Below are positions 4,276 through 60,832 of a stretch of 64,000 nt of DNA, piece by piece. The position numbers were made by a program, and so were the translations under genes. The stretch is from contig CAWBPM010000002.1 of the NCBI GenBank assembly GCA_963790825.1, positions 487,159-551,158 on the forward strand, written 5' to 3'. Within the stretch, counting starts at the first letter, position 1; each line of letters opens with the position of its first letter. The notes below the pieces were generated by a model. The model saw nothing but the letters and a program-made list of their open reading frames with translations. It did not search any database and was not told the DNA's origin. This DNA comes from Candidatus Levyibacteriota bacterium. Its GTDB lineage: Bacteria; Patescibacteriota; Microgenomatia; Levybacterales; UBA12049.

Positions 4276-6837
4276 ATGGATATAGGAGAATTAAAACAAG
4301 CAAATATTTCCCTGGAGATGAAAAAAGCGTATCTCAACTACGCCATGTCTGTTATCGTTGCCCGTGCTCTTCCCGATGTCCGCGACGGACTGAAGCCGGT
4401 TCACAGAAGAATTCTTTTCGCAATGCATGAGCTTGGTCTTACTCATGCGGCGAAATTTTCTAAAAGCGCGAAGATCGTCGGAGAAGTCATGGGTAAATAT
4501 CATCCGCATGGAGATGTTCCGATTTATGACGCACTGGTCCGATTGGCACAGGATTTTGCGATGCGCTACCCAATCATTCAGGGACAAGGAAATTTCGGTT
4601 CAATTGACGGCGATCCTCCGGCTGCAATGCGTTATACCGAGGCGAGAATGGCGGCAATTGCCGCGGAAATGCTGACGGACTTAGATAAAGAAACCGTGGA
4701 ATTTATTCCGAATTTTGACGGGAGTGAGGATGAACCTGTTTATCTGCCGGCAAAACTGCCGAACCTTCTTCTTATGGGATCTGAGGGTATTGCCGTCGGC
4801 ATGGCAACCAAAATCCCACCCCACAATCTCGGAGAAGTAATCGACGCGATCATTTATATGATTGGGAAGATTACTTTCGCCGGACTAAAGACGGGAAACG
4901 GACAGATACAAACTCCTGCTGTCTTAAAAGGAACTGTTGTTGAGTCAGCTAAGATAGGCCCCAAAGTGACACTTACCAGTAACGTTTCTATCGATGAACT
5001 TTTGGAATTTATTAAAGGCCCTGATTTTCCGACAGCCGGAAGTATCTTCGACATTACCGAGATTAAAAACGCGTATTATACAGGACGCGGGAAAGTTCTC
5101 ATCCGGGGAAGGGCAGAAATTGAAGATATCGGAAACGGTAAATCAGCAATCATCATTACCGAGCTTCCTTACCAGGTGAATAAAGCGCTGCTGGTTGCGA
5201 AAATTGCCGATCTGGCCAAAGAGAAAAAAATAGAAGGTATTTCAGATCTTCGGGACGAATCTGATAGACGCGGACTTCGGATTTATGTCGAGTTGAAACG
5301 CGACGCAACGCCAAAAAAGATTTTGAACAATCTCTATAAACATACCGCGCTGCAAACCAGTTTTCCGGTTAATATGGTTGCTCTGGTTGACGGCACTCCG
5401 CAAACACTTAATTTGAAAATTATTCTTGAAGAATATTTAAAACACCGTTATATCGTTATCAGACGCCGGTCGGAATTCGAACTTCGGCAAGCGAAAGCCA
5501 GACTGCATATTCTTGAAGGATTAAAAATTGCGGTTGATCACATTGATGCCGTTATTCGGACGATTCGCGAATCGGCTACCCAGGAAGATGCGAAGAAAAA
5601 TTTAATGCAGAAATTTGATTTGTCTGAAATTCAGGCAGTTGCGATTTTGGACATGCAACTGAGGCGTCTGGCAGCACTGGAAAGGCAAAAGATTGAGGAT
5701 GAGCTACAATTGGTCAAAGAGACTATCGAGTACCTGGAGGATCTTCTGACGCATCCTGAAAAGATACTCCATGTCGTAAAAGACGAGCTTGAAAATTTGA
5801 AAAGTAAATACGCCGATCCGCGTCGTACTAGGGTTTTCAAAAGTAAAGTCGGCGAGTTCTCCGAAGAGGATTTGATACCGAATGAATCGACTGTTATTAC
5901 CTTAACTAACACCGGCTATATCAAGAGGCAATCGCTTAATAGTTTCCAGTTGCAAAACAGGGGAGGGAAAGGGATTACCGGCATGAAAATGAAAGAGGAA
6001 GATGCTATCGCTCATATCCGTCATGCCCAAACGCATGACAATCTACTCTTTTTCACCAACAAGGGAAAGGCGTATCAACTGAAAGCGTATGAAATTGCAG
6101 AAAGCAGCAGAATCAGTAAGGGATCGGCGGTAATTAATCTGCTTAATATCGAATCCGGAGAAAAAGTGGAATCATTTATCAGCTACACGAAGGCAAGTCG
6201 TGGAACATATGTTTTTTTAACGACAAAAAACGGTACGGTGAAGAAATCTGCGCTGTCGGAATTTGAAAATATCAGGAGAAACGGCATTGCCGCAATTAAA
6301 TTGGATAAAGACGACGAGCTTGTTTGGAGTAAATTGACTGACGGCCAGAACGATATTATGCTCGTGACCAGAAATGGTCAGGCAATCAGATTCGGAGAAA
6401 GTTCTGTGAGACCTATGGGAAGAGCAACTATGGGAGTTCGGGGAGTAAGACTACAAAAAGATGATAAGGTAATCAGTATGGATATTATTTCAAAGACCGA
6501 GAAATTGGATCTCCTTACCATTATGGAAAACGGTCTCGGCAAAAAAACAGCAATTGATCTTTTCCGTGGTCAAAGCAGGGGAGGAATGGGAATTCATGTC
6601 GCTAAAGTAACCGATAAAACAGGAAAAGTCGTTGTATCGCAAGTTGTTCCCAAAACTGCAGAAGAAGTCATTATAACTTCCAAGAGGGGACAAGTTGTAA
6701 AACTGGCAATTACTTCTGTTCCTAAACTTAGCCGTGATACCCAAGGCGTCATCTTAATGAGATTTTCAAATCCAAATGATAAAGTCGCCTCCGCCACCTG
6801 CATCGAAAAAGGAGCTGAACTCGAGAAGAAAATGTAG
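4276..6837 (+). CDS. gyrA: DNA gyrase subunit A
   Basis: 853 aa. Motifs [43 protein letters not shown], and C-terminal beta-pinwheel repeats. Confidence 0.97.
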
Positions 6838-6889
6838 CTAAGGGGTCTTGAAGTTTTACATATATAGGTAATATTAATATAATTAATTT

Positions 6890-8377
6890 ATGCCAGAATT
6901 AGGTTCGGGAGAATCAGCCGAAAAAACTGCTGTTCCATATGCAGATTTAGTTACGCCTATTGATAAGGCTACTATTACAGACGTAGCTCACGCAGGATTT
7001 ACAACAATAGAATCTCGTTTAGAAGATTGCAGAGTTCCGCTTCTAAGACCAGGCTTTCGAGACGAAGTTCAGAGAGCGCAGGAGGCAAAAGTTAGAGATG
7101 GTACTCCAAACGATATTTTAAGGGTAGATGCTCAATATAGAGGACATGTTGATGCATATGAATTTTCTTTAAGTGAATTAGGACAAGGAGGGACACCGAT
7201 TAGTAGTGATGCACATAGGAGAGCATGGATTCGCGCAGGAAGTCCTAATACTGTTAAGCTTCCTCCAAATCCCAAAGACCACATAGATGTTGCAGGCTTT
7301 GAAAGAGCCAGTAAGCAAGGCCTAGGGAGAATTGCAACTGCGCTTGAAGACTCATTAGTTTCTTCTCGTGATCTTACACTTCTGGAAAAGAAAGCAGTAG
7401 ATCCTACTACAGTTTCAGATGAAGAGCTAGGAAGACGAAAAGCTGAAGGAGAGGAAAAAAGTTATAGAGTAGTATTGGAAACGTTTGGACAATGGGAACT
7501 TATTCAAGCCGCTGATGAAAGAGCAACAAAAAGAATCATCGCAGCTACACCTTCTGAAGCGACGTTAGCTAAAATTAGGGCCGGACACGAACATAAATTC
7601 TTAGATTCTCGAAAACCAGCAGTAGTCGAAGACAGAAAAGGAATGGAATCCTCCTTAGCAGGTGTACGATCAAAACTTGCAGAAGAAACTCGATCAGATG
7701 GTTCAACGGCTGAAGAAGTAGAAAAAACCGATGAGAAGACCCTTGCATATAGCAACGCTTTGCAAAAAAGTATTGACTCGCATGGTGGAATTGAAAAATT
7801 TATGGGGGTAAGCGTATATAGGGCAATATTAGAACTTGAACGACACCTGGAAGATAATTTAACAACACTTCATAGACCAGAATTTCGAAGTAAATTAAGG
7901 GAAGCTATGCAAGCAAGAAGAGAAGGAAAAATAGTTGGTAATATGCCATTATTAGATGCAAGCCTCAGAGGAGAAGTTAACGCTTATGAAGTAACATTAC
8001 GCAACCTCGGACAACTTGCTGTCATTGAGGATGCTCGAAGCAGAGCAAAGAGTAGAATTGTAGCCACTGACGACTTAGAGTTACCTTCATATGGAAAGGG
8101 AAGCATAGATATTGCATCGCTTAAAGACAGATATGTTAAAAGATTTGTGGGCATTGCAAGAGATTTTGAGGGCGCATTAGCTTATGCCAGAGATCCTGTA
8201 CGAGTAGAAGAATCCATGCGTAATTCTACATCAACCTCAGACGAAGCACTTATTAGGATGCGTGAAGAAGGAAGATGTAAAGGATATAATAAAATTATTG
8301 AGGAATTCTCATTGGGTTATCTTGGAAGTGCTGTATCAGACGTAATAGCAAAAAGATTTACAAAGCCCACAGAATAG
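6890..8377 (+). CDS. Hypothetical 495-aa charged protein with an internal two-fold repeat; no recognisable domain
   Basis: Long ORF. Repeated module DAQYRGHVDAYEFSLSELGQ / DASLRGEVNAYEVTLRNLGQ. Confidence 0.6.
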   Translation: MPELGSGESAEKTAVPYADLVTPIDKATITDVAHAGFTTIESRLEDCRVPLLRPGFRDEVQRAQEAKVRDGTPNDILRVDAQYRGHVDAYEFSLSELGQGGTPISSDAHRRAWIRAGSPNTVKLPPNPKDHIDVAGFERASKQGLGRIATALEDSLVSSRDLTLLEKKAVDPTTVSDEELGRRKAEGEEKSYRVVLETFGQWELIQAADERATKRIIAATPSEATLAKIRAGHEHKFLDSRKPAVVEDRKGMESSLAGVRSKLAEETRSDGSTAEEVEKTDEKTLAYSNALQKSIDSHGGIEKFMGVSVYRAILELERHLEDNLTTLHRPEFRSKLREAMQARREGKIVGNMPLLDASLRGEVNAYEVTLRNLGQLAVIEDARSRAKSRIVATDDLELPSYGKGSIDIASLKDRYVKRFVGIARDFEGALAYARDPVRVEESMRNSTSTSDEALIRMREEGRCKGYNKIIEEFSLGYLGSAVSDVIAKRFTKPTE

Positions 8378-8549
8378 TTAATTTTAGAGAAAATATTGAT
8401 TTATTATCATACATAAGTTTTAACTATTTAACCCCCGATGGAAAATATTTTATTAAACATTACACTGAAGAATAAGTAGTTATTTAATTTTGCTAAGCTT
8501 TTATTTCACACTGTAATTAATCCCGATAATATGGTATCCTTCATATATT

Positions 8550-8885
8550 ATGGCTGGAAATGATGATTCTATAGAAGAAACACCACCATCTACTTCGCAA
8601 ACGATGACGCTTCAGAAAGCAGTTGATTTGGGCGAGTATGATCCTAAATACTTAGCTGGCTTTCCGGAATGGCATAATTTTAGTAAACATATTCAGTTTC
8701 AATATATAAAAAAGGCTTTAGAAAATAGACATAGACAATTAATTCTACAATATACAGAACTTAACAATGTTTTAGACCTAAGAAATAAACCTGAAGTTTG
8801 GGAAGCGATTAAAAATGTTGAAAAGCAGTTGCATCATTTGTTGGAAGAAAAAGAGAGACTGTTCATTGAATATTCAAATGCTTGA
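8550..8885 (+). CDS. Hypothetical protein (111 aa), first gene of an AT-rich overlapping three-gene cluster
   Basis: ORF. Stop is 3 nt before the next start. Confidence 0.45.
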   Translation: MAGNDDSIEETPPSTSQTMTLQKAVDLGEYDPKYLAGFPEWHNFSKHIQFQYIKKALENRHRQLILQYTELNNVLDLRNKPEVWEAIKNVEKQLHHLLEEKERLFIEYSNA

Positions 8886-8888
8886 AAT

Positions 8889-9410
8889 ATGTCTTTATCT
8901 TCGACTTCGAATACAATAAATGCCCTGGGAATATTTGGAAGACTAATGCCGCAACAGGAGAAGTATCTCCATGAATTAGAAGTAAGGTTTAGTAAAAGAC
9001 CAGAAAATGATGAGGCGAATGGTATATTCAATCACTTATCCTTAGTTATTAATAACAATGTACCTATAGGTAATATGCCTCTTTATATAGATTTATTGAA
9101 AGAACTAAAATCTTATTTACCTTTGAGAATTAAGACTTCGGGTGTAATTGTAAAAGAAGATAAACATCTTGCGTTGTCTTTCGAAACCACACAGACGCAA
9201 CAGATTAGAGATTTGGCAAGTAAATATTTTAATGAAGGAGTTGTGATAACACACTACACAAAAGTTGTGTGGTTTGTACCAAAAGAAAACCAAGAAAAAG
9301 TAACAAAAGAACTAAAAAATATAAAAGAAATGGTATTTTACGATTTTATATTAGTAGCAAATAGACAAAACGATGATAATACAGTCTATTCATCAAATCG
9401 ATACCAATGA
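8889..9410 (+). CDS. Hypothetical protein (173 aa)
   Basis: ORF. ATGA overlap with the downstream methyltransferase gene. Confidence 0.45.
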   Translation: MSLSSTSNTINALGIFGRLMPQQEKYLHELEVRFSKRPENDEANGIFNHLSLVINNNVPIGNMPLYIDLLKELKSYLPLRIKTSGVIVKEDKHLALSFETTQTQQIRDLASKYFNEGVVITHYTKVVWFVPKENQEKVTKELKNIKEMVFYDFILVANRQNDDNTVYSSNRYQ

Positions 9411-9988
9411 CATTATCTGCTTATCATCAAAAATATGCCAATCAATCCGACGAAGAGCTAGAGCGCCGGGTTAAAGTCAAAGAAGAAGAACTACGAACGA
9501 TATTTGAAAAAGTAAAATTGCAAACAGACGGTGAAACTGTCAGAGTAGCGGTTTTGGGCTGTGGAGATAAAAGATTCGTCAAAGCGCATAAAAAGCTATT
9601 TGAACAATTTACAAAAAAGTCGGTTGAATTAACAACATTTGATATTACGATTGAGCATTTGCAAGGAGAAGAAAACGTTATTCAGCATGACTGCACGCTA
9701 CCCCTACTAAACCCGCCCTATGACATAACCTTTGCACATGTTTTATTAAAGTTTATTGAGACAGACAAACAATTGGGTGTCATTAAAAATTCTTACAACT
9801 CTCTAAAACCCGGTGGTTTTGCAATTCATATCATGGATAATGAGGAAATCGAAACAAAAGAAAAAATATTACCAAGCGGTCAATATGCCGTCCCTTTGCA
9901 AAGATGGAAAGAATTACTAAATCAAGAAGGAATTACATTTTCAGAAATACCGCTGAAATACGGCATTGCAATTGTTGTGATTAAATGA
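9407..9988 (+). CDS. Minimal SAM-dependent amino-methyltransferase with NPPY motif (gamma-type N6-adenine / HemK2-Mtq2-like fold), 193 aa
   Basis: Motif I VAVLGCGDKRF at ~aa 48, acidic beta2 end TTFDIT, motif IV TLPLLNPPYD at ~aa 103, LKPGGFAI after it. No target-recognition domain is evident. Confidence 0.55.
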   Translation: MTLSAYHQKYANQSDEELERRVKVKEEELRTIFEKVKLQTDGETVRVAVLGCGDKRFVKAHKKLFEQFTKKSVELTTFDITIEHLQGEENVIQHDCTLPLLNPPYDITFAHVLLKFIETDKQLGVIKNSYNSLKPGGFAIHIMDNEEIETKEKILPSGQYAVPLQRWKELLNQEGITFSEIPLKYGIAIVVIK

Positions 9989-10037
9989 TTGTAAAAAAGC
10001 AATTGACTTTTGCCTCTTATGGATTTAATATGATGAT

Positions 10038-10298
10038 ATGAAAGTTAAGAGTGATCCTCAAGATTTAGTAACAAAAATCCATCTCGATATTAAATTGGGT
10101 GGACTAAAAATTGAATTGGGAGACACAATGAAAAAATATAGAAACGACGTGTTAAATAGCTTAGATAAAGTAGTAAAGGAACTAGAAGCTGCAAGAGAGG
10201 ATAGAATTATTTCAAATCACAAATTAGATCAAATACAGGAAATCGTGCAAGAGCAAGGATCGCGGTTATCTGACTTAGAACAGCAGCAAATTAATTAA
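10038..10298 (+). CDS. Hypothetical small coiled-coil protein (86 aa)
   Basis: ORF preceded by TTGACT-N17-TAATAT at 10003-10031. Start would be near leaderless. Confidence 0.4.
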   Translation: MKVKSDPQDLVTKIHLDIKLGGLKIELGDTMKKYRNDVLNSLDKVVKELEAAREDRIISNHKLDQIQEIVQEQGSRLSDLEQQQIN

Positions 10299-10361
10299 AA
10301 GCAGGGAAGAGAGTTACTAAGCCTCATTTCAACTTACTCCCAATTACGCTATAATAATTTC

Positions 10362-11216
10362 ATGAAAGTTGACGGGCGAGTTATTGCCGAAAAGATTTAT
10401 GATGAATTAAAGCTTAAAGTAGTTAGCTTACAAGGCAAAGGAATTTCCCCGAAACTCGCGGTTATAATGGTTGGAGAAAACACGGGATCTCTTACATATA
10501 TTAAGCAGAAGCAAAAGTTTGCTGAGTATATCGGCGCGGAAGTGCAGGTTTTTCGCTATAAAACAGACGTAAAAGAACAAATAATTTTAAATGCAATTGG
10601 AGAACTGAATAAAGATAACTTGGTTCAGGGAATTATCGTCCAACTTCCGCTTCCTGATCACATGCATGAGGAAACAATAGTTCGGGCAGTTAATCCCAAA
10701 AAAGATATTGATGGATTTCATAAAAATTCTCCATTTACTGTTCCTATTGTTAAAGCAGTTATAAGGGTTCTTGAAGAAATACAAAAGATCGATGTTCCTT
10801 CGGAAGAATTTCTCATTTGGTTAAAGACTAAACAAATTGTCGTGATCGGAAAAGGGAAGACCGCAGGCGGTCCATTGATTAGTTATCTGCAAAAACAAAA
10901 AGTTTCCTGTGTTGTTATTGATCAAAAAACAAACAATCCTGAAAAAATAATGAGGGAAGCTGACATTATCCTCTCTGCTGTTGGGAAATCGAATGTAGTA
11001 AAGTCAACAAATATTAAAAAAGGTGTGATACTGATTGGGGTGGGGCTTGATAGGGGAGAGGATAAAAAACTCCATGGCGACTACGTCGAAAAAGAAATAG
11101 AACCCATTGCTTCATTTTATACACCAACACCCGGCGGCATCGGACCGGTCAATGTTGCGTGTTTACTGCAAAATCTGGTAATCGCGGCGAAAAACCAAAC
11201 AGATAAAAATAATTAG
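10362..11216 (+). CDS. folD: Bifunctional methylenetetrahydrofolate dehydrogenase / methenyl-THF cyclohydrolase
   Basis: Motifs LAVIMVGEN..SLTYIKQKQK, GIIVQLPLP, DIDGFH, PTPGGIGPVNVACLLQN. Confidence 0.93.
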   Translation: MKVDGRVIAEKIYDELKLKVVSLQGKGISPKLAVIMVGENTGSLTYIKQKQKFAEYIGAEVQVFRYKTDVKEQIILNAIGELNKDNLVQGIIVQLPLPDHMHEETIVRAVNPKKDIDGFHKNSPFTVPIVKAVIRVLEEIQKIDVPSEEFLIWLKTKQIVVIGKGKTAGGPLISYLQKQKVSCVVIDQKTNNPEKIMREADIILSAVGKSNVVKSTNIKKGVILIGVGLDRGEDKKLHGDYVEKEIEPIASFYTPTPGGIGPVNVACLLQNLVIAAKNQTDKNN

Positions 11217-11316
11217 ATGAATAAGTCTATTTTGAATTCTTACTGGACTCTTACTCGATTTTTATAGTATTATAGTTGTTGAGTTAGATAATAGACGAGA
11301 AAGGGAGGTGATTAGA

Positions 11317-11583
11317 ATGGGTAATAAGAAAAATATGGGTACGGCACTGGGTGCCGCGGCTGTCGGTGCGGCAATCGGGGCAGCAGCGATGACGCTTACC
11401 GATGAAAAAAATCGTAAAAAAGTTGTCGCGACAATGAAAGACGTAAAGAAAAAAGCGACGAAACAAATTGATATACTGAAAAAGAAAACGAGAGAGTTAA
11501 GAGACCGTAAAGGCGATATTTCACAATCTGCAGTTTTGAAAAAACCGACAGCAAAAAAAGTCGTTACAACGGCAACAAAATAA
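11317..11583 (+). CDS. YtxH-like glycine-zipper small protein
   Basis: GTALGAAAVGAAIGAAAMTL glycine zipper followed by a Lys-rich helix. SD AAGGGAGG 8 nt before ATG 11317. The track start 11308 is a GTG inside the SD. Confidence 0.55.
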   Translation: MGNKKNMGTALGAAAVGAAIGAAAMTLTDEKNRKKVVATMKDVKKKATKQIDILKKKTRELRDRKGDISQSAVLKKPTAKKVVTTATK

Positions 11584-11589
11584 CACCTT

Positions 11590-11847
11590 ATGTGGTTACA
11601 AAATACTTTTTATATCTTCGGTATTATTTTTATGGTTCTCAATATTGTGATTTTGATCAGTATTGCTACTGCAGTTTTATATTTAAAGAAAAAAGTTGAT
11701 GAGATTCATCGGACGTTCAATCAGAAAATTGCTACAGTGAAACAAATTACGACGGAACCAAGTGCTATAGCACGAGGAGTAGGAGCAATCGCGACAAGTA
11801 TATTATCCTTTGTACTCCACAAAATATTTAGCAGGAAAAAAGAATAA
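11590..11847 (+). CDS. Small membrane protein, DUF948/YtxG-like (N-terminal TM plus helical region)
   Basis: 85 aa. A hydrophobic N-terminus, and pairing with a YtxH-like gene as in Firmicutes ytxG-ytxH. Confidence 0.4.
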   Translation: MWLQNTFYIFGIIFMVLNIVILISIATAVLYLKKKVDEIHRTFNQKIATVKQITTEPSAIARGVGAIATSILSFVLHKIFSRKKE

Positions 11848-12049
11848 ACCTTCCCATATTTTCACTCTTTACTTTTTATTAATTTGGAGGATATGCCACT
11901 CCGCTTTGATTTAACAAATTTTGGCTTATACCTTCGTAGCAATCAAAAGAAAGTTACTATATATAGTTTCTGTGGCTCGAATATTCAAAGCTTCGGTTGG
12001 CATTATACCTTGTATTTTGATTGCGAAGAGGTATAATACAAAAGAAGCT

Positions 12050-12817
12050 ATGTCTTTTCTTGTTTTTCTTTTTGTCATTATCTTCATTTTTCTCAGCTTA
12101 AGTATTAAAATTCTCCGTGAGTATGAACGGGGAGTTATTTTCTTTCTCGGCCGTTTTACCGGTGTTAGGGGTCCGGGACTTATTATCCTTATTCCAATAT
12201 TTGAGAGGATGGTAAAAGCAACTCTTCGGATTGTTACCATGGAAATTCCTTCGCAAAAAATTATTACCAAGGATAACGTCTCAATCGATATCGCAGCAGT
12301 CGCATATTATAAAGTCGTCAATCCATCTAAATCCGTTCTGGCAATTGAAGACGTCTATACAGCGGTAAATCAGATCAGCCAAACAACCGTTCGTAATGTT
12401 ATTGGTCAATTTATGCTTGACCAGCTTTTGTCTCAAACCTTAAAAATTAACACGCAAATTAAAGAAGTAATTGACCGTCACACCGAGCCATGGGGAGTAC
12501 AGGTCACTGCAGTTGAAATTAAAGATATTATGCTTCCTGATAATATGCAGCGGGCAATGGCCAAAGAAGCGGAGGCTGAGAGGGAACGGAGGGCAAAGAT
12601 TGTCGCAGCAGAAGGGGAGATGCAGGCCGCAACAAAATTAGGAGAAGCCTCAGACATTATCGCCAAACACCCGATAGCGCTTCAACTCAGAACTTTGCAA
12701 TCATTGACCGAAATCAGTACTGAACGAAATTCAACGATTATTTTTCCCGCACAATTTATGACTACTGTCCAGGAAGTTTTAAGAACCGTGACAGAAGATT
12801 TAGCGAATAAGAAGTAA
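12050..12817 (+). CDS. SPFH/band-7 (stomatin-prohibitin-like) membrane protein
   Basis: [35 protein letters not shown]...[44 protein letters not shown]. Start moved to Met44 of track ORF 11921; the upstream 43 codons look non-coding. Confidence 0.85.
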
Positions 12818-12883
12818 TCCACACTTCGTAATAAAAGTCTTATAGTTCGATTTTCCTTTATTTCCGCTGTATAATTTAATTTT

Positions 12884-13693
12884 ATGTCTGAACAACTTAA
12901 AATAATTCCTTATACAACGCTTCAGGAAAGGGCAGACCGAAGGTTAGAATTTCTTGTCGCGGCAAATACCGAACCGGGTTCGAACTCTTCATCTACCGAT
13001 CAAAGAAAATCAAGCTTGGAGTTAGCGCAAAAACGATATTTCCAAACAGATAAGCTTTTCGAGATCGCAAATCAAATATTGACAAATGATCGTACAAAAG
13101 AAACATATAGAAGACAGCAAACTGAATTGAATGCATTTCTTAAAGAAACGAGCCGGCCCGATTGGTATTATGCCAACCGGAACTTTCCCTTAGTCGGCTT
13201 AAATATGCAACAAGCATTAGCCGGAGTAACCGATCTAATACGTGAAGAACAGGCAAAATCTATTTTTGAAGTATTAAAAGGGGCAACAATCCCCGGTTAT
13301 GAAAACGATATTTATATAGAACCGGCAACACTGGAATTATTAGATCCGGAAAAAGCTGAGTGTATCTGGAATGGATTTAGAGCCAGAAAAAAATTTTTAG
13401 ATATTGCTGTCTCGGATGGGGAACATGCGGGAAATAATCTGGCTCTTAGGCTGCTTCAACAGTTTAGATTCTCCGGGAATACAGTTTCAATTCTCAGTCC
13501 TGTTCTCGATGTGCCGACAAGAGAGGTAGCCAAACAATCACTTCGCGGAAAAACAAGATGCGGCGTTTTGCAAGCCGAAATTCCAACAGTTCTTAGGGGA
13601 ATTAACCTACAATTCCAATATTCCACTCCCGATCAAGACGCTCTCCCGGACAGAATCTTTCTCAAAGTTACACCTCAAGATAAATTACACTAG
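12884..13693 (+). CDS. Hypothetical protein (269 aa)
   Basis: ORF only. Confidence 0.5.
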   Translation: MSEQLKIIPYTTLQERADRRLEFLVAANTEPGSNSSSTDQRKSSLELAQKRYFQTDKLFEIANQILTNDRTKETYRRQQTELNAFLKETSRPDWYYANRNFPLVGLNMQQALAGVTDLIREEQAKSIFEVLKGATIPGYENDIYIEPATLELLDPEKAECIWNGFRARKKFLDIAVSDGEHAGNNLALRLLQQFRFSGNTVSILSPVLDVPTREVAKQSLRGKTRCGVLQAEIPTVLRGINLQFQYSTPDQDALPDRIFLKVTPQDKLH

Positions 13694-13815
13694 TACCTCG
13701 CCGCCTGAACCTTTAAGTGGGAATAAATCTTAAGTAAACTACTTGTTTTCTGTTCTTGCAACAAAAGATGAGATGTGCTTAAATGCCATTGACTTATGAC
13801 TCCTGATTATTCCTA

Positions 13816-15003
13816 ATGAAACGCTTATTGAAATTTAAAAAAAATTACTATCTTGTTATCTTTCTCTTGCTCGGAATTATCATTACTGCTATATCATTTC
13901 TTATGGCATCACTAAATACGAATAAACCAGTGACTATCGCAAAACAACAAGCAGTACTTGCCGCACAAACTCTGAAACCAACTCCCACCTCTATACTTAC
14001 CCCGACACCAACAATTGCTATCCCGACTCCGACTGCTTCTCCTTCCGTAGCGACATCGCAACCCTCAAGCGGCATTAAGCTGTTCGGTGTAAATATGGCA
14101 GGAGGCGACTTTGGGGAGGATAATTTACCGGGAAACGGTAATTACATTTATCCCAGTGATCAAACAAGTTTTAATTATTTTGCAAATCACGGATTAACGA
14201 TTATCAGAGTTCCGTTTCGCTGGGAAAGAGTACAACATACAGCAATGGGAGATTTGAATCAACCGGATATTGATGGGCTCAATGCAACAGTTGCGACAGC
14301 CAGCAATGCAAACGAAAAAGTAATTTTGGATATGCATAATTACGGGAGATATTTTAATACGCCATTAACTCTTAGCGACAGTACAAAATTTGCCGATGTC
14401 TGGAGAAAGTTAGCTGATACGTTTAAAGATAATCCCGCGCTTTTCGGTTATGAGATTATGAACGAACCGCATGATTTGCCGGATGGAACAAATGAGTGGG
14501 CAAGTCTTGCGCAAAGTGCAACCGACGCGATTCGCCAGCTAGACACTACGCATTATATTATTATCCCCGGATACGATTGGCAGAGTGCAAACGGCTGGCC
14601 GGAAAATAATCAGAACCTCAATATTAATGACGCAACCGGAAAGATTCTTTATTCCGCGCATCAGTATTTTGATAGCGATCAAAGCGGAAGATATAGTGAG
14701 GGTTACGATGCAGAACAAGCAAATCCTAATACCGGCGTTACACTTATTCAACCTTTTTTAACCTGGCTGGCAGCGAATAATAAACAGGGAATTTTTACTG
14801 AATACGGAATACCGGGAGATGATCCGCGTTGGTTAACAATGCTGGATAATTTCTTGGCAAGGTTAAACAGTAATCCGAATATTGTCGGCGGTACGTACTG
14901 GGCGGCAGGTCCCTGGTGGGGAGATTATAAATTGTCCGTGGAACCGCAAAACGGATCTGACAAACCCCAAATGAGTATACTGCAAAAATACAAAAGTCGA
15001 TAA
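13816..15003 (+). CDS. Glycoside hydrolase family 5 endoglucanase-like, N-terminal membrane anchor and Pro/Thr-rich linker
   Basis: GVNMAGGDFG, IIRVPFRWERVQ, ILDMHNYGRY, YEIMNEPHD (acid/base Glu), IFTEYGIPG (nucleophile Glu). Confidence 0.85.
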   Translation: MKRLLKFKKNYYLVIFLLLGIIITAISFLMASLNTNKPVTIAKQQAVLAAQTLKPTPTSILTPTPTIAIPTPTASPSVATSQPSSGIKLFGVNMAGGDFGEDNLPGNGNYIYPSDQTSFNYFANHGLTIIRVPFRWERVQHTAMGDLNQPDIDGLNATVATASNANEKVILDMHNYGRYFNTPLTLSDSTKFADVWRKLADTFKDNPALFGYEIMNEPHDLPDGTNEWASLAQSATDAIRQLDTTHYIIIPGYDWQSANGWPENNQNLNINDATGKILYSAHQYFDSDQSGRYSEGYDAEQANPNTGVTLIQPFLTWLAANNKQGIFTEYGIPGDDPRWLTMLDNFLARLNSNPNIVGGTYWAAGPWWGDYKLSVEPQNGSDKPQMSILQKYKSR

Positions 15004-15134
15004 AAAATTCTATTGTACTTTGATATTATTTAGTTTTTAGATATTAGAAATTAGGATTTTATTTGAGCCGAATTACTGAGGTTAAACAAAGTGTCTTGAC
15101 AAGCTTAGTTTGAAAGAACTACGATAGAAACGTC

Positions 15135-15983
15135 ATGGGATCATTACATCAACTAAAAATTCCCTTCCTCAGTGTTCTTTTTTTCTTTTTGTGCTTTTAT
15201 GTCTTTAGCAAAATTTTTGGACCGATTCCATTCTACATACAAAGTGTGACAACAGATAAACAAGATCTTTTTACGGTTGATGGAACAGGTAATGCAACAG
15301 TGGTACCCGAAACCGCTCAAATCTCCCTTGGAGTAAGCAAAACTACAGCAACAGTGCAAGACGCGCAGAAACAGGTAAACGAAATTGCTAATAAATTAAC
15401 TTCCGATTTGAAAGCACTGGGAATAGCTGACAAAGATATAAAAACTACCAATTATTCATCATATCCGTTATATGGACCAATTCTGCCAATGTCTGCTCAG
15501 TCAGGTGACGAAACGTCTGGATCAGTTCAGTCGGGAGAGACTGCTGCGGGACCAGTGACAAGTGACATCGCAATGCCGATGCGTCCGCCAAGCAGTCAGG
15601 GATATACAGTCACAGAGGATATAAATGTCACTAGCAAATCAACCGATATCGCGAATAAAGTATTGGATTTGGCTCCGAAAGATGGGGCGAATGTCATAGG
15701 TGGTATTCAGTTTGTTTTAACTGATGAGGAGCAACAAGCGCTCGAATCACAAGCAAGAACACAAGCTATCCAAAACGCCAAACAAAAAGCGCAATCGATT
15801 GCAAGTGAAGCAGGTTTACGATTGGGAAAACTCGTTAATATTCAGGAATCGCCAAGTGGATATCCCGGACCAATTATGTATAGTGCAGCAAAAACTGCAC
15901 CAGATCAAAATTCACAGACAAGTGTTAACCCCGGACAAAATAGCATAACAGTAACCGTAACCCTCTCCTACGAAACCCTCTGA
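15135..15983 (+). CDS. SIMPL-domain (DUF541/BP26-like) secreted protein
   Basis: Signal/TM at the N-terminus, DGTGNATVVPETAQISLGV... and C-terminal ...NSITVTVTLSYETL, typical of the SIMPL family. Confidence 0.65.
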   Translation: MGSLHQLKIPFLSVLFFFLCFYVFSKIFGPIPFYIQSVTTDKQDLFTVDGTGNATVVPETAQISLGVSKTTATVQDAQKQVNEIANKLTSDLKALGIADKDIKTTNYSSYPLYGPILPMSAQSGDETSGSVQSGETAAGPVTSDIAMPMRPPSSQGYTVTEDINVTSKSTDIANKVLDLAPKDGANVIGGIQFVLTDEEQQALESQARTQAIQNAKQKAQSIASEAGLRLGKLVNIQESPSGYPGPIMYSAAKTAPDQNSQTSVNPGQNSITVTVTLSYETL

Positions 15984-16007: not shown

Positions 16008-16943
16008 TCACTTGTTTCCGCTATGAAATGCCTTGTGCACATCTCTGAGTTGTTTATTCGTAATATGGGTATAGATTTGTGTAGTCGCAATATTCTTATG
16101 CCCCAGCATTTCCTGAACCGAGCGGATATCGGCACCGTTTGTGAGTAGATCAGTTGCGAACGAGTGGCGCATCGTGTGAACCGTCGCGTCAACCGGAAGC
16201 CTAGCCAACTTTACATATTTTTTAATCACCCGCTCGATACTCCTTGCAGTCAGGCGCATTTTTTCGCCGTCATTTTCCTCATTGGGACGTCCCGAATATC
16301 TGATAAAAAGCGGTTTATAGGAATCCTGCCGTATTCCCAAATAGTTCTGAATCCAATCGGCAGCGCGGTCCGAGACAAATACAATTCTTCCTTTTCCGCC
16401 TTTCCCAATTACACCGAATTCTTTCCGCTCCAAATTAATTTCTCCATGATTTAATTTTACAAGCTCCGATACGCGAAGTCCTGTTGAAAAAAGTAATTCC
16501 ATGATGCAGCGGTCCCGCATTCCTTCTTCTTTTGAAGTATCAGCCATATTAACCAACTGATCAATTTGCTCCCGTTCGAGAAATTTTAAGCTCCGGCTCT
16601 CGGTTTTTGGTAAATCAATTTTCGACGGCTCCAGAGTTTTATAATCATTCTTAATTAAAAACCTTAGAAACGAGCGAAGCGCGATTACATAATAATTTTG
16701 CGTCACTTTCTGAAGAGTCTGACCTTTATCATCTGTTCTATTGGCCAAAAATACCCGGTATCTGCGGATTATCGATAGGTCCAAATCTTCAATTGTTTTG
16801 TGTGGCAGGGTAGAGGAGAACCATTTTTCAAAAGTATCCAAGTAATGCCTGTAGTCCCGAATCGTTAACCGGGAAGAATTTTTTTCAATTTCCAAATATT
16901 CCAGATAATTATTAATTAGGTCAGGCAAGAACAGCGAACGCAT
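16008..16943 (-). CDS. Tyrosine site-specific recombinase XerC/XerD family
   Basis: C-terminal HTMRHSFATDLLTNGADIRSVQEMLGHKNIATTQIYTHI, with R..HxxR..Y catalytic residues. Start moved to Met48 (MRSLFLPDLINNYLEYLE) for a normal ~311-aa length. Confidence 0.88.
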   Translation of the reverse strand: MRSLFLPDLINNYLEYLEIEKNSSRLTIRDYRHYLDTFEKWFSSTLPHKTIEDLDLSIIRRYRVFLANRTDDKGQTLQKVTQNYYVIALRSFLRFLIKNDYKTLEPSKIDLPKTESRSLKFLEREQIDQLVNMADTSKEEGMRDRCIMELLFSTGLRVSELVKLNHGEINLERKEFGVIGKGGKGRIVFVSDRAADWIQNYLGIRQDSYKPLFIRYSGRPNEENDGEKMRLTARSIERVIKKYVKLARLPVDATVHTMRHSFATDLLTNGADIRSVQEMLGHKNIATTQIYTHITNKQLRDVHKAFHSGNK

Positions 16944-17000: not shown

Positions 17001-18497
17001 TTGACAATACTTCCCCAAAAAAGCCATACTAAGTATATGCGGGAAGAATATATTCTCAGAGCAAAAGCATATCTTTTGTCTCAACCGGACTATAGAGAAA
17101 AATTCGAAGACATTAAAAAAGATCTCTTAGCACTTGGTGCCAGCGAAGAAGAAATCCAGAAAGCGATTGCAGACATTGAAGATGAGCCGATTGAAGAAGC
17201 GGACAAAAAGAAAGAACAAGCCGATAAGCCTGAAATTATAAAAAAATTACTTGAAGTAGATATTGCGTCCCACATTGTAACCGGCGTGCTTATTGTCTTT
17301 GCTCTTTTTTTCTTCTTTATGTTTCTGCACAATAGACAAGTATCTATGTCCCCTTCGTCAACCAATATTCAAACTAATGAGGGCTCACCGTTGGTCACAA
17401 GGGTATACGCTCTCACGCTTCCGGTAAATGCAACGCAGGTTTTTTCCTATCCCGGAACAAATATTAGTTTACCTATCTCAGGTTTTCCAAAGAGGGAAGT
17501 ACTTGGATTTTTTCCCTATTGGATGCTTGACGTTGAGGACAAAGTAAATTTAATTGGTATTACCGACATTAGTTTATTCGGTCTTGAAACAGATGGTAAT
17601 GGCAATATCATTACGGTCGGTAGTGATGGCACGACGGACCCGGGATGGACCATGTGGAATGATCCCAGGCTTACACTCTTCTTAAACAGAGTGAAAGCAA
17701 AAAACATTCACGTAGCACTCACAATAAAATCATTCAATAATAACAACATTGAGCATCTGATAAGTTCTGATAATAGTCAAAAGCAATTAATTGCTAATGT
17801 GATTCATCTAATTAGTATAAAAAATCTGGACGGAGTAAATTTGGATTTTGAATATACCGGAAACCCGACACCTTCTCAAATCAACTCATTTACTGCATTT
17901 ATTACCAATCTTAATACAAATCTAAAACAGCAAAATCCTAATCTCGCACTTACCCTGGATACAAATATTACTGCCGCCTCTCAGCCTCTGCTTCTAGATA
18001 TTCCTTCTCTTGCAGGCAGCGTCGATTCATTCATCGTCATGGGATATGATCTGCATACGCCGCAAGGCGAACCCGGCGCGATAGCACCGATTGACGGGAC
18101 CAATGGACTTATTGAACTTGTACAAAGTTACCTGGAAAAAGTAGGGCCTGAAAAAATTATTTTGGCTGTTCCGTATTATGGTTACGACTGGCCGATAAGC
18201 GACGCGGTAAACAACACAAGTCAAAATGCGGCAATACTTCCATATGCACAGGTGATGGATTTAGCCAAAGATAAAACTGTTTCCTGGGACGAAACTACAC
18301 AAACTCCATACTTTACTTATATTGACCCCACAACGAAGCTAAAACACCAGGTATATTTCGATAACACTCGCTCAATCGGTTTGAAATATGATTATATAAA
18401 TCAGAAGAATCTTAAAGGCGTCGGCATTTGGGCACTCGGCTACGACGGACTCAATCAAGACCTCGGCGCCCTCATCCTCGAGAAATTCGCCAAGTAA
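17001..18497 (+). CDS. Glycoside hydrolase family 18 (chitinase/YaaH-like) with N-terminal cytoplasmic segment and one TM helix
   Basis: DGVNLDFEY (DxxDxDxE catalytic motif), MGYD, PYYGYDW, VGIWALGYD. TM segment IVTGVLIVFALFFFFMF. The start might instead be Met13 at 17037. Confidence 0.75.
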   Translation: MTILPQKSHTKYMREEYILRAKAYLLSQPDYREKFEDIKKDLLALGASEEEIQKAIADIEDEPIEEADKKKEQADKPEIIKKLLEVDIASHIVTGVLIVFALFFFFMFLHNRQVSMSPSSTNIQTNEGSPLVTRVYALTLPVNATQVFSYPGTNISLPISGFPKREVLGFFPYWMLDVEDKVNLIGITDISLFGLETDGNGNIITVGSDGTTDPGWTMWNDPRLTLFLNRVKAKNIHVALTIKSFNNNNIEHLISSDNSQKQLIANVIHLISIKNLDGVNLDFEYTGNPTPSQINSFTAFITNLNTNLKQQNPNLALTLDTNITAASQPLLLDIPSLAGSVDSFIVMGYDLHTPQGEPGAIAPIDGTNGLIELVQSYLEKVGPEKIILAVPYYGYDWPISDAVNNTSQNAAILPYAQVMDLAKDKTVSWDETTQTPYFTYIDPTTKLKHQVYFDNTRSIGLKYDYINQKNLKGVGIWALGYDGLNQDLGALILEKFAK

Positions 18498-29259: not shown

Positions 29260-29344
29260 GCCGGGATGGCGGAATGGTATACGCGGTAGTCTCAAAAACT
29301 ACTGGCTCTAAACGGCCTTGTGGGTTCGACTCCCTCTCCCGGTA
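29260..29344 (+). tRNA. tRNA-Leu (anticodon CAA), class II with long variable arm; no encoded CCA
   Basis: Hand-folded: acceptor GCCGGGA/TCCCGGT (G1:U72), D-stem GCG/CGC, anticodon stem GTAGT/ACTAC, loop CTCAAAA (U33, A37), variable arm ~16 nt, T-arm GTGGG-TTCGACT-CCCTC, discriminator A. Confidence 0.85.
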
Positions 29345-34586: not shown

Positions 34587-35930
34587 CTAATCCCCATATT
34601 CCTGGCGAGACTGGTCGGCTGTTTTATCGACTCCGTAAAACCTGATTCGGTCTCCTCTAAACAGAAGGTCGATTTCTCCTGTCGGACCGTTTCGGTGTTT
34701 GGCAATTAAAAGTTTGGTCGGAATATTGCCGGTGGTTATTTCCGCTTCCGGACGATAAATAAACATTACCACATCCGCATCCTGCTCAATTGTTCCCGAC
34801 TCCCTAAGATCGGCGAGTTGCGGCCGGCGTTCTCCCCTATGCTCTACTGCACGAGACAATTGGGAAGCTGAAAGCACCGGGACTTTTAATTCCCTTGCCA
34901 GGTTTTTTAAAGACTGGGAAATGATCGCAACTTCCTGTACCCTGTTATCATACCTGCGTCCGGGATCGATGAGTTGAAGATAGTCAACGATGATTATTCC
35001 CACCCCATGTTCGATTTGCAACCTGCGCGCTTTACTTCGCATCTCCATAAGGTTAAGCCCGGGCGTATCATCTATAAAAATCGGCGCGTCGGCTAATTGC
35101 CCCATGGCTTCTGATAATTTGGTAAAGTCATCTTCCGATAACTTTCCTGTTTTAAGCCGCCATGCATCTACGTCAGCTTGAGAGACGAGGAAACGATCCA
35201 CCAGCTCTTCTTTGCTCATTTCCAAAGAAAAGATACCAACCGGAATTTTTTCCTTTATTGCCATAGACTGGGCCATATTAAGCAAAATCGCGGTTTTTCC
35301 TTGTCCCGGTCTGGCTGCCAGAATAAGTAAGTTTGACTTTTGCATACCGGAAAGCATATTGTCGAGGTCTGTAAATCCCGTTCTCACGCCGCGAAGTCCG
35401 GATCCCTTTTTATGCAGCTCGTCAATGCGATCAAAACTTTCCGTCAGGCTTTCTTTGATCGGAATAAAACCACGAGAGATATGACCCTGAGAGATGGAAA
35501 AAATTGCCGATTCTGCCTTATCGAGAAGATCTTTGACCTCCCGTCCGTCTTCAAAACCCATTTCCGCAATTTCCGAGCTGGCTTGGATAAGAAAACGTTT
35601 GGTTGCGGATTCTTTCACAAGCTCGGCATAATACTCAATATTCGCTGCCGTCGGGACAATATTCACGAGCTCTGCCAAATATGACGAGTCAATATTCTTA
35701 TGTTCTTTCCTTTTTTTAAGTTCCGAGGTAAGCGTGAGCAGGTCGATTGGCTTTCGGTGTTCGACAAGTGTCAACATCGCGTCATAAATAATTGCAAGGG
35801 CATCATTGTAAAAATGCTTGGGGCGGAGCGATTCCGAGACAACATGAATCGCGTCTTTATCAATCAGGATTGCGCCTATAACACTCTGTTCTGCTATATC
35901 GTTGTGAGGGAGAACTCGCAAATTGGCCAT
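34587..35930 (-). CDS. dnaB: Replicative DNA helicase DnaB
   Basis: N-terminal LPHNDIAEQSVIGAILID, Walker A ARPGQGKT, and RecA-like core. Confidence 0.95.
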   Translation of the reverse strand: MANLRVLPHNDIAEQSVIGAILIDKDAIHVVSESLRPKHFYNDALAIIYDAMLTLVEHRKPIDLLTLTSELKKRKEHKNIDSSYLAELVNIVPTAANIEYYAELVKESATKRFLIQASSEIAEMGFEDGREVKDLLDKAESAIFSISQGHISRGFIPIKESLTESFDRIDELHKKGSGLRGVRTGFTDLDNMLSGMQKSNLLILAARPGQGKTAILLNMAQSMAIKEKIPVGIFSLEMSKEELVDRFLVSQADVDAWRLKTGKLSEDDFTKLSEAMGQLADAPIFIDDTPGLNLMEMRSKARRLQIEHGVGIIIVDYLQLIDPGRRYDNRVQEVAIISQSLKNLARELKVPVLSASQLSRAVEHRGERRPQLADLRESGTIEQDADVVMFIYRPEAEITTGNIPTKLLIAKHRNGPTGEIDLLFRGDRIRFYGVDKTADQSRQEYGD

Positions 35931-59002: not shown

Positions 59003-60736
59003 ATGATTAAACTCTTACGATTTTTAGAACCATACCAAACTCTATTGGTATTTATTTTTGTTCTTGCCGTCGGGCAATCCGTAGCCAATCTGTATCTGCC
59101 CAATTTAATGTCTGATATCGTGAATAACGGAATTGCTGCTTTTGACACTAACTATATATGGAGAACGGGAGGCATTATGCTGCTGGTTACGATTGGAGGC
59201 ACAATTTGTGCTGTTGTAGGAGTTTATTACGCGTCCCGAGTCGCAACAGGAATGTGTAAAACTATCCGTGCTCAAATTTTCGACAAGGTTCAACGTTTTT
59301 CACTGCAGGAATTTGATAAAGTGAGCACTGCTTCGCTTATCACACGCACTACGAATGACACGACACAAATTCAGCAGGTCATGGTAATGATACTGGGTAT
59401 GTTGATCACTGCTCCTATCACGTTGGTTGCCGGCATAATTCTGGCTTTAAATCAGGACGTCGGGCTGTCCTGGATTTTGGTGGCGATCACGCCGGTGCTG
59501 GTTATCGTTATACTAGTACTACTTGTAAAAGCTGTTCCGCTGTTCACCGTGATGCAGGTGAAGCTTGATAAATTGAATCTTATATTGGATGAGAATTTGA
59601 CCGGTGTACGGGTGATCCGGGCTTTTAATCGCATAAAACATGAGGAAGCACGGTTTGATGTGGCTAATCGTGATGTAACAAACGTTGCTATCAGAGTAAA
59701 TCAGATGGTGTCATTTATGATGCCGATTATGATGCTCCTGATTAACGTCTCCAGCGTAGCTATTATCTGGTTCGGAAGCAAGCGGGTTGCGGGCGGTGAT
59801 TTGCAGATTGGCGCAATGTTTGCTTTCATGCAGTATGCCGTCCAGATTCTTTTCTCACTTTTAATGGTTGCGCTTTTATTTATCATGATTCCGCGCGCAC
59901 AGGCTTCTGCAACCAGAATTAACGAGGTGCTGGATATGGAACCCGAAATTAAGGACCCCAAACAGACCAAGGAGGAGACGCCGCTGCAAGGGTACGTCGA
60001 ATTTCGTGACGTGACATTTCGCTATCCCGGCGCGGAAAATCCAGCCCTCTCTGATATATCCTTTAAAACCTCACCGGGTACGACTACGGCTATTATTGGC
60101 GGTACCGGTTCGGGTAAATCCACCCTGATCAACCTTATTCCGCGTTTTTATGATGTGGAAAAAGGACAGGTGCTGGTTGATGGCATCGAGACCCGGGATA
60201 TGTCACAGGAGTATTTGCGTGCAAAAATCGGTTTTGTACCGCAGAAGGCTGTGTTGTTTGCAGGAACGATTAACAAGAATATCCTCTACGGTAAGGAAGA
60301 TGCAACTGACAGCGAAATCAGACACGCGGCTGACGTAGCACAGGCCAGTGAATTTATCGAAAAAATGCCTGATAAATTTAATTCTTTAATCGCCCAAGGC
60401 GGGACAAATGTATCAGGAGGACAAATGCAGCGTCTCTCAATTGCCAGAGCATTAGTTCGAAAACCGGAAATTTACATATTCGACGACACTTTTTCAGCCC
60501 TTGACTTCAAAACCGACGCTAAGTTACGCGCTGCTCTTAAAGGAGAAATTCGTAAAGCGACAGTGCTGATTGTAGCCCAAAGGGTCAGCACGGTTGTGGA
60601 TGCAGACCAGATTATTGTTTTGGATGATGGACGTATCGCAGGTATCGGCAAGCACCATGATTTGATGAAAACCTGTGATGTTTATCGGGGAATTGTGACT
60701 TCACAGTTGTCAGCAGCAGAAATTGCTGAAGAATGA
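59003..60736 (+). CDS. ABC multidrug-type exporter, permease/ATPase half-transporter (heterodimer subunit A)
   Basis: 6-TM N-domain. GGTGSGKST, VSGGQMQRLSIARAL, IYIFDDTFSALD. Confidence 0.92.
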   Translation: MIKLLRFLEPYQTLLVFIFVLAVGQSVANLYLPNLMSDIVNNGIAAFDTNYIWRTGGIMLLVTIGGTICAVVGVYYASRVATGMCKTIRAQIFDKVQRFSLQEFDKVSTASLITRTTNDTTQIQQVMVMILGMLITAPITLVAGIILALNQDVGLSWILVAITPVLVIVILVLLVKAVPLFTVMQVKLDKLNLILDENLTGVRVIRAFNRIKHEEARFDVANRDVTNVAIRVNQMVSFMMPIMMLLINVSSVAIIWFGSKRVAGGDLQIGAMFAFMQYAVQILFSLLMVALLFIMIPRAQASATRINEVLDMEPEIKDPKQTKEETPLQGYVEFRDVTFRYPGAENPALSDISFKTSPGTTTAIIGGTGSGKSTLINLIPRFYDVEKGQVLVDGIETRDMSQEYLRAKIGFVPQKAVLFAGTINKNILYGKEDATDSEIRHAADVAQASEFIEKMPDKFNSLIAQGGTNVSGGQMQRLSIARALVRKPEIYIFDDTFSALDFKTDAKLRAALKGEIRKATVLIVAQRVSTVVDADQIIVLDDGRIAGIGKHHDLMKTCDVYRGIVTSQLSAAEIAEE

Positions 60737-60832
60737 AGCTCCCTGGGTTTAGACCCAAGGTATCTTCATCTTTGCTTCGTTGGGAGCGGAATCCCTCCGA
60801 AGCACCACTGAACGGGGCGAAGGGGGATAAAT

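Follow-up and report, generated by a model that had tools for sequence, protein, structure and literature searches.

Variable junctions between conserved core genes, also known as integration hot spots, are a well-known feature of genome organization, and bacterial Pnkp/Hen1 RNA repair is a known pathway that heals, methylates and seals. Both serve as points of comparison for the locus studied here, i.e., a block of five genes between gyrA and folD in a 64,000-nt stretch (in the following: the window) of a Candidatus Levyibacteriota bacterium (assembly GCA_963790825.1, contig CAWBPM010000002.1, positions 487,159 to 551,158). The host is a bacterium of the candidate phyla radiation (CPR) with a small genome, and the relatives found via its GyrA are labelled Patescibacteria, Levyibacteriota and similar. 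The five proteins are named by their lengths in amino acids (aa), i.e., p495, p111, p173, p193 and p86. Described enzyme families are available for comparison with two of them. The 2H superfamily (LigT/ThpR, plant CPDase, YjcG, Usb1, AKAP7, viral 2'-5' phosphodiesterases, Acb1) is defined by a signature consisting of a pair of His-x-Ser/Thr motifs (PMC5283653), and amino-methyltransferases carry their catalytic (D/N/S)PP(Y/F/W) motif IV where strand beta4 has its carboxyl end (PMC7544214).

An earlier note on this DNA had taken the block for a horizontally acquired island and possibly a small defence, modification or toxin-antitoxin-like module. We arrive at a different reading, to which we assign a probability of roughly 0.7: the block would be an ordinary patchwork of unrelated accessory genes at a variable junction, with independent functions and a transcript shared by an accident of packing.

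GyrA served as query against species-representative genomes, and the proteins of the window were placed on the closest loci by tblastn, where the nearest sampled genome has a GyrA that is just 79% identical. In six relatives (L002, L003, L004, L005, L008, L010; GyrA 56-79% identical), folD begins 3-83 nt past gyrA, which makes 6/8 of the relatives in which both genes are visible. Since folD follows gyrA that closely in these genomes, the segment 6838-10361 is an insertion relative to the lineage, as the earlier note had supposed. Two further relatives, L006 and L015, carry inserts of 1.5-1.7 kb at the same junction with different gene content, i.e., a membrane protein plus a Pro/Ala-rich protein in the one and an alpha/beta-hydrolase-like (by reading) plus a Pro-rich protein in the other. 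We considered these junction ORFs (open reading frames) as diverged p495 relatives and rejected the idea, as none is related to the window's genes. Among themselves, the ORFs just 5' of folD (L006 13365-14207, L015 13347-14039) are both Pro/Ala/Thr-rich and have the short motif GL.TL.Q.P.F in common (local E=0.003) but are otherwise unrelated.

The neighbouring junctions vary as well. folD and the SIMPL gene are adjacent in L003 and L015 and 3.9 kb apart in the window, while gyrB and gyrA are separated either by the inorganic pyrophosphatase gene ppa or by 2-4.4 kb of other sequence. That is, gyrA|folD is a variable junction within a backbone of fluid junctions. As in integration hot spots, its cargo differs by genome (none in six, other gene pairs in L006 and L015, five genes here). 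Unlike there, the island region shows no integrase or transposase ORF (nor any other recombinase), no tRNA (the window's only one is at 29260) and no direct or inverted repeat at its boundaries, and one cargo gene, p111, is a conserved lineage gene. No Rfam RNA element was found inside the island either. The layout of the locus is as follows.

4276..6837, plus strand: gyrA, the conserved 5' flank (Pfam DNA_topoisoIV, E=2.8e-158, and DNA_gyraseA_C; relatives 56-79% identical).
6838..10361, plus strand: inserted segment, absent in six relatives according to the tblastn synteny map.
6855..6883, plus strand: promoter-like site TTTACA-17-TATAAT from a consensus scan, the region's top score (11/12), just 5' of p495; suggestive only, given a site count at chance level.
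6890..8377, plus strand: p495, an acidic protein with 32% charged residues that is duplicated internally (copies at about nt 7007-7549 and 7835-8371).
8378..8549, no strand: AT-rich spacer of 172 nt between p495 and the three-gene cluster, with a weak promoter-like site at 8505-8532 and no Rfam match.
8550..8885, plus strand: p111, a member of a conserved family of ~113-aa helical-hairpin proteins from Microgenomates-type CPR bacteria.
8889..9410, plus strand: p173, with a predicted 2H-phosphoesterase fold; motif 1 H49-L-S51-L at 9033-9044, motif 2 H122-Y-T124-K at 9252-9263.
9407..9988, plus strand: p193, a predicted standalone class-I S-adenosylmethionine (SAM) methyltransferase, Methyltransf_11/TehB-like; motif I LGCGD at 9554-9568, non-catalytic NPPY at 9710-9721.
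10003..10031, plus strand: promoter-like site TTGACT-17-TAATAT from the consensus scan, 9/12, of a class found at chance frequency.
10038..10298, plus strand: p86, a small charged protein with coiled-coil-like sequence.
10362..11216, plus strand: folD, the conserved 3' flank (Pfam THF_DHG_CYH and THF_DHG_CYH_C; relatives 36-48% identical).

The basic description of the locus in the earlier note stands: the five ORFs of 495, 111, 173, 193 and 86 aa lie where it had placed them, Pfam identifies the flanking genes as gyrB, ppa, gyrA and folD, and the small genes are packed as described, with a gap of 3 nt between p111 and p173 and an overlap of 4 nt (ATGA) between p173 and p193. Such tight packing is common in this genome, as 12/52 same-strand gene pairs (23%) are separated by 5 nt or less. 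Each of the five proteins is a singleton at 90% identity in a collection of ~15 billion proteins, where their contig measures 751 kb.

With regard to a possible module, we searched the six-frame ORFs of 121 loci and of the window with hidden Markov models (HMMs) of the p111, p173 and methyltransferase families. Outside the window, there were matches to the methyltransferase family (28 loci), to the p111 family (9) and to the p173 family (3). Across these 41 loci with the window counted in (1.5 Mb together with the GyrA loci), only the window holds more than one of the three families in one locus. The tblastn results agree. The 111/173/193-aa trio was found in none of the other loci.

For p111, a word-index search of its own returned 70 relatives, the best being 78% identical, while PDB sequence and profile searches gave nothing significant and viral contigs no match. 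The nine p111-family loci outside the window stem from five assemblies and show four distinct contexts: between RmuC and TsaD (L112), adjoining a block that holds resolvase, relaxase and zeta-toxin genes (L115), beside a TPR protein (L118), and between PGK on one side and an ABC ATPase and, further out, GAPDH on the other (L121). L115 and L003 belong to one assembly (whole-genome shotgun prefix JAJYWL01), i.e., in this genome gyrA abuts folD and the p111 relative is located elsewhere. The two p111 proteins are 71% identical and the GyrA of the same genome is 73% identical. Similar divergence at a different position is what one sees when a gene of the lineage is passed on vertically and shifts its place, and p111 would fit this description, i.e., it may have been relocated. 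A 174-aa gene that follows the p111 relative in L112 was considered as a p173 relative and rejected by the family HMM search. The block beside the p111 relative of L115 (1-6900; GCA_021791545.1, contig JAJYWL010000016.1) looks like an integrated mobile element. It encodes a serine recombinase, a Replic_Relax relaxase, a zeta-toxin-like kinase, a beta-lactamase-fold protein and a NUDIX protein, followed by DUF3800 and a helix-turn-helix regulator.

For p173, we obtained a family of 29 representatives at 50% identity, of which the closest (P0010) is 76% identical. The predicted p173 structure shows the bilobed alpha+beta 2H fold. In the fold search, cellular cyclic phosphodiesterases and LigT score above Acb1, and the comparison with a viral structure library yields the same 2H family and nothing closer. 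Both H49-L-S51 (nt 9033-9041) and H122-Y-T124 (nt 9252-9260) are placed at strand starts in the model. The protein thus resembles the 2H superfamily in size (173 aa vs. 168-185 aa) and in its pair of His-x-Ser/Thr motifs, and the structure model firmly supports a divergent 2H-phosphoesterase fold. In contrast, no sequence or profile method links p173 to the superfamily: Pfam and NCBIfam give no hit at E<=1 (including LigT_PEase and 2_5_RNA_ligase2), PDB sequence and profile searches are empty, and hhalign against a LigT_PEase-positive protein reports a probability of 0.2%. Also the extended motifs differ, i.e., ThpR has HxTxxF/HxTxxR while p173 has HxSxxI and HxTxxV. The scan of viral contigs was without match for p173, and the alignment of its family is too diverse for a pattern scan.

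Within the p173 family, H49 and S/T51 are conserved. The distal His, on the other hand, is substituted in most relatives, including the closest one (Y at position 122 in P0010). In ThpR, the H125A exchange abolishes activity (PMC4201822). It is plausible that p173 itself is catalytically competent, while its family overall, given the variable second His, may work without canonical two-His chemistry. In one of the p173-family loci (L109; 1-311, 859-996), a short gene 3' of the p173 relative was read as putatively HicA-like and a putative tRNA-like sequence lies on the 5' side.

The third gene of the cluster had been described as a minimal NPPY amino-methyltransferase. We agree on the methyltransferase and on the literal NPPY, but not on its role. 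Judged from its sequence, p193 is a class-I SAM methyltransferase of the Methyltransf_11/TehB-like type: residues 32-142 align with TehB (2xva), and the GxGxG-type motif I (LGCGD) and the TFD at the acidic end of beta2 are invariant or nearly so in the family and shared with TehB/Methyltransf_11, as is a pre-beta4 'LP..P(Y/F)D' loop. p193 itself stays below the Pfam cut-off of Methyltransf_11 (19.9 vs. 21.2 bits), which matches 8/21 relatives with a best E-value of 2.2e-8. Features that set the p193 family apart from TehB/Methyltransf_11 are a conserved LSxYHxxY helix at the N-terminus and a His that follows beta4 and is invariant. Outside the core, p193 has only about 45 residues on the N-terminal and 50 on the C-terminal side, in which Pfam detects no domain.

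With motif-IV amino-methyltransferases of DNA, RNA or protein, p193 shares the tetrapeptide and the Rossmann-type SAM-binding fold. However, NPPY is kept in only 13/28 relatives, with NVPF, DTPY, KSPY, YAPY, GMPY, FGHF and HGPY as variants and only the third-position Pro conserved. Furthermore, the HMMER alignments to TehB (2xva) and 8k76 place it in the loop before the beta4 strand 'DITFAHVLL', i.e., N-terminal to beta4 and on the wrong side of the strand. An unconserved tetrapeptide at this position led us to reject the amino-methyltransferase reading, and p193 is not counted as a member of that group.

The p193 family is spread over 27 metagenome loci (51-63% identity, contig GC of 27% to 58%); the scan of viral contigs gave no match. 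Some members are fused to a C-terminal NUDIX domain or, on a contig with recoded TGA (L001), to an N-terminal ANT(2'')-like nucleotidyltransferase. To our knowledge, neither fusion is a feature of TehB. Recurrent neighbours are NUDIX (4 loci), Fic (4), APH (3), other methyltransferases (3), MazG (2), SET (2) and integrases (2), where the Fic count is based on BLAST clustering with a gene annotated as PF02661 in L001. We infer that p193 would methylate a nucleotide-like or other small molecule rather than DNA. The genes of L001 (1-7400) are intact only if TGA is read as sense, and the fusion gene lies in a nucleotide-centred neighbourhood with a LigT-type 2H phosphoesterase, Fic, NUDIX, S66 peptidase and RNase T as well as putative (by reading) RecJ-like, DprA/SLOG-like and asparaginase genes.

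In p495, aligning one half with the other gives 34% identity over 182 aa (E=4e-23), which corroborates the internal repeat already noticed before, and we regard the duplication, from which p495 arose in part, as real. The protein contains 32% D/E/K/R, has an isoelectric point of 5.9, and its sequence reads without a hydrophobic N-terminus. A word-index search of 5.8 billion proteins returned only p495 itself, with no sensitive profile search made. Neither Pfam, NCBIfam, PHROG and PADLOC nor PDB (sequence and profile, whole protein and repeat) gave a match, and the same holds for viral contigs and, by tblastn, phage genomes. For p86, only sub-threshold matches to coiled-coil families were obtained (Pfam, NCBIfam, PADLOC, PHROG), such that it is best described as a small charged protein that appears coiled-coil-like. 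Neither the fetched loci (1.5 Mb) nor viral contigs contained a relative, and the sole large-database query was an insensitive concatenation of the four small proteins. This word-index query brought back only methyltransferase relatives, missed the 70 p111 and 29 p173 relatives and even the exact p111, p173, p193 and p86 entries present in the collection, and is useless as evidence of absence.

Taken over all five proteins, the statement that none of them matches a nameable family is correct insofar as most are without a curated family. It is wrong for p111 with its 70 relatives, and for p173 with its 29 representatives and the 2H fold of its model.

We also compared composition and codon usage, since the earlier note had based its idea of acquisition on a higher AT content and deviating codon preferences of the segment. 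Raw GC is indeed 0.30-0.35 over 8251-10250 compared to 0.395 for the window. For a bootstrap, the amino-acid sequence of each gene was kept fixed and synonymous codons were drawn from the rest of the window (65 genes). The resulting synonymous GC content at third codon positions (GC3) of p495 is the lowest of all 65 genes (0.20 observed vs. 0.36 expected, z=-7.2), followed at some distance by p173 (third lowest, z=-3.4) and p111 (fourth lowest, z=-3.0). In contrast, p193 and p86 are unremarkable (z=-1.7) and near folD (z=-1.0). With gyrA and gyrB marking the GC-rich end of the range (z=+3.8), the contrast between island and flanks looks exaggerated. Moreover, the island genes show positive codon log-likelihood z-scores, i.e., the A/T-ending codons that the window itself prefers are used in excess, and no foreign set is employed. 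The claim therefore holds for the low GC and for the GC3 of three genes but neither for p193 and p86 nor for foreign codons. The composition fits a lower-GC donor and equally well young or weakly constrained genes that drift with the mutational bias; it is no proof of transfer. Elsewhere in the window, several genes (59003-62788, 34587-35930, 16164-16454, 940-1278) have a high synonymous GC3 (z=+3.4 to +4.9). They fit the window's codon preferences poorly (log-likelihood z down to -5.6) and are thus more 'foreign-looking' than the island.

With regard to promoters, the proposed p86 promoter TTGACT-N17-TAATAT is present in the sequence (10003-10031). It scores 9/12 only, and such sites occur at chance frequency, i.e., 14 promoter-like sites were found vs. 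15.1 +/- 4.0 expected in shuffled sequence.

In the patchwork reading, 6838-10361 would be the lineage-specific fill of a variable junction and consist of at least three independent units that form no single system. The first unit would be p495, which has a promoter-like site of its own and grew by internal duplication. The second would be p111-p173-p193, probably co-transcribed, whose three families live apart wherever else sampled. Therein, p111 would be a conserved small helical lineage protein that moved to the junction, and p173 might act as a hydrolase on nucleotides or RNA ends that carry a cyclic phosphate or phosphodiester. As third unit remains p86, a presumably coiled-coil-like small charged protein.

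Several observations weigh against this reading. The 3-nt gap and 4-nt overlap still allow for translational coupling and thereby a local functional link. The synonymous GC3 is significantly low in p495, p173 and p111 alike. In L001, a LigT-type 2H gene (Pfam-positive) is found three genes upstream of the nucleotidyltransferase-methyltransferase fusion, which together with the window makes 2/29 contexts and hints at a recurrent association of 2H and methyltransferase genes. The contexts of p173 relatives come exclusively from contigs of at most 1.5 kb, where that of the closest relative (76%) is not seen. Finally, only part of the p173 relatives have H at position 122, most having Y, S, N, D, G, P or W there, which makes the activity considered above uncertain.

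The same data bear on the alternatives. That the whole block is one recent mobile island from a lower-GC donor, be it a phage, a plasmid or an integrative element, is in our view quite unlikely. It would be in line with the absence of the block from relatives and with the low GC3 of p495, p173 and p111; also, p193 relatives are sometimes found beside integrases or transposases, and one p111 relative borders the resolvase/relaxase/zeta-toxin block. However, the region lacks an integrase, a tRNA, an att-like direct repeat and an inverted repeat, no match was found in viral contigs for any of the five proteins or in phage genomes for p495 (tblastn), PHROG gave no match, the composition of p193 and p86 is normal, and the codons over-used in the island are those preferred by the host. 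The best relatives differ from gene to gene (p495 none, p111 78%, p173 76%, p193 63%) and so do their contexts, and such unequal identities in different surroundings point to separate histories. In addition, with a GyrA identity of 79% to the nearest sampled relative, 'recent' cannot be judged. Horizontal acquisition is thus not demonstrated, and p111 diverges about like GyrA. Even less credible, to the point of being very improbable, is an anti-phage defence, restriction-modification or toxin-antitoxin module. Small, tightly packed genes including a methyltransferase invite this interpretation, and a p173 relative is located beside the putative HicA-like gene, whose identity rests on reading only. 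But no PADLOC model is significant, with the best E-values (0.0015-0.018) on coiled or low-information segments and the lowest of them on a coiled-coil segment, and neither Pfam nor NCBIfam finds a toxin or antitoxin family among the island proteins. The NPPY is no DNA amino-methyltransferase motif, a target-recognition domain was not detected, and there is no nuclease, ATPase or known toxin fold. Furthermore, the genes do not co-occur elsewhere, p111 is conserved about like GyrA and found among housekeeping genes in other genomes, and cellular cyclic phosphodiesterases and LigT outscore Acb1 for p173. The module suggested in the earlier note therefore finds no support in PADLOC matches, co-occurrence or the NPPY.

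A more specific alternative takes p173 and p193, possibly with p111, as a functional pair acting on one substrate, in which an RNA end or nucleotide with a 2',3'-cyclic phosphate or phosphodiester would have this group opened or trimmed by the 2H enzyme, before the methyltransferase would mark the product. We consider this unlikely, although the p173 stop and p193 start overlap (ATGA) and p111 precedes by 3 nt, both HxS/T motifs are intact in p173 with its modelled 2H fold, p193 relatives are fused to nucleotide-handling domains (NUDIX, nucleotidyltransferase), and the LigT_PEase gene of L001 is near the fusion gene there. The arrangement also recalls Pnkp/Hen1, as a putative enzyme of the 2',3'-cyclic-phosphate-processing type (p173) is encoded beside a SAM methyltransferase (p193). 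Yet the pair is seen in 0/27 metagenome methyltransferase loci and 0/3 p173 loci at HMM sensitivity, and almost a quarter (23%) of the same-strand gene pairs are equally tight. The 2H protein of L001 has no detectable sequence similarity to p173, and 2/29 contexts is weak. Unlike in Pnkp/Hen1, Pfam and NCBIfam reveal neither a kinase, phosphatase or ligase domain nor a methyltransferase of the Hen1 type, and the p173-p193 pairing is not conserved. A bolder variant holds that p173-p193 is a newly assembled two-enzyme pathway. Its divergent 2H phosphoesterase would open or cleave a phosphodiester, cyclic or 2'-5', of a signalling nucleotide or an RNA 3' end, and a member of a methyltransferase family not annotated before would methylate the product. 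As a second element, p495 would be a young gene without detected relatives, built by duplication at the variable junction. We rate this reading as rather improbable. If true, p173-p193 would serve to heal and mark, or to quench a signal, and would have no relation to Pnkp/Hen1.

Beyond the block, further differences in the gyrB to SIMPL region were observed. ppa lies between gyrB and gyrA in the window and in L002, L006, L015, L018, L023 and L025, while the interval holds 2-5 kb of different sequence in L004, L005, L007, L008 and L009. Downstream, 11217-15134 is a second lineage-variable segment, since in L003 and L015 folD is directly followed by the SIMPL/DUF541 gene (15135-15983 in the window). 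Its five genes encode a YtxH-like protein of 91 aa, an 85-aa membrane protein, an SPFH/Band-7 protein, a 269-aa protein without family and a GH5 cellulase. The latter, a GH5 cellulase-family gene (13816-15003), is near a gene of the chitinase-type GH18 family (17001-18497) in a genome of 0.75 Mb. Such polysaccharide-degrading enzymes may be linked to an episymbiotic or scavenging lifestyle of this CPR bacterium.

If the patchwork reading is correct, what could plausibly pass for a 'mystery defence island' is explained by ordinary gene flux at a variable junction of a reduced CPR genome, which saves follow-up effort. A literal NPPY and tight packing are unreliable cues in AT-rich, gene-dense genomes. 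At the family level, the p173 family, which could not be placed by sequence methods, can now be annotated as having a predicted 2H-phosphoesterase fold. The methyltransferase family of p193, which is compact, mostly stays under the Pfam cut-offs and comes either alone or in fusion with NUDIX or nucleotidyltransferase domains, is delineated together with its neighbourhood. Finally, the ~113-aa p111 family is flagged as strongly conserved and lineage-specific in Microgenomates-type CPR bacteria.

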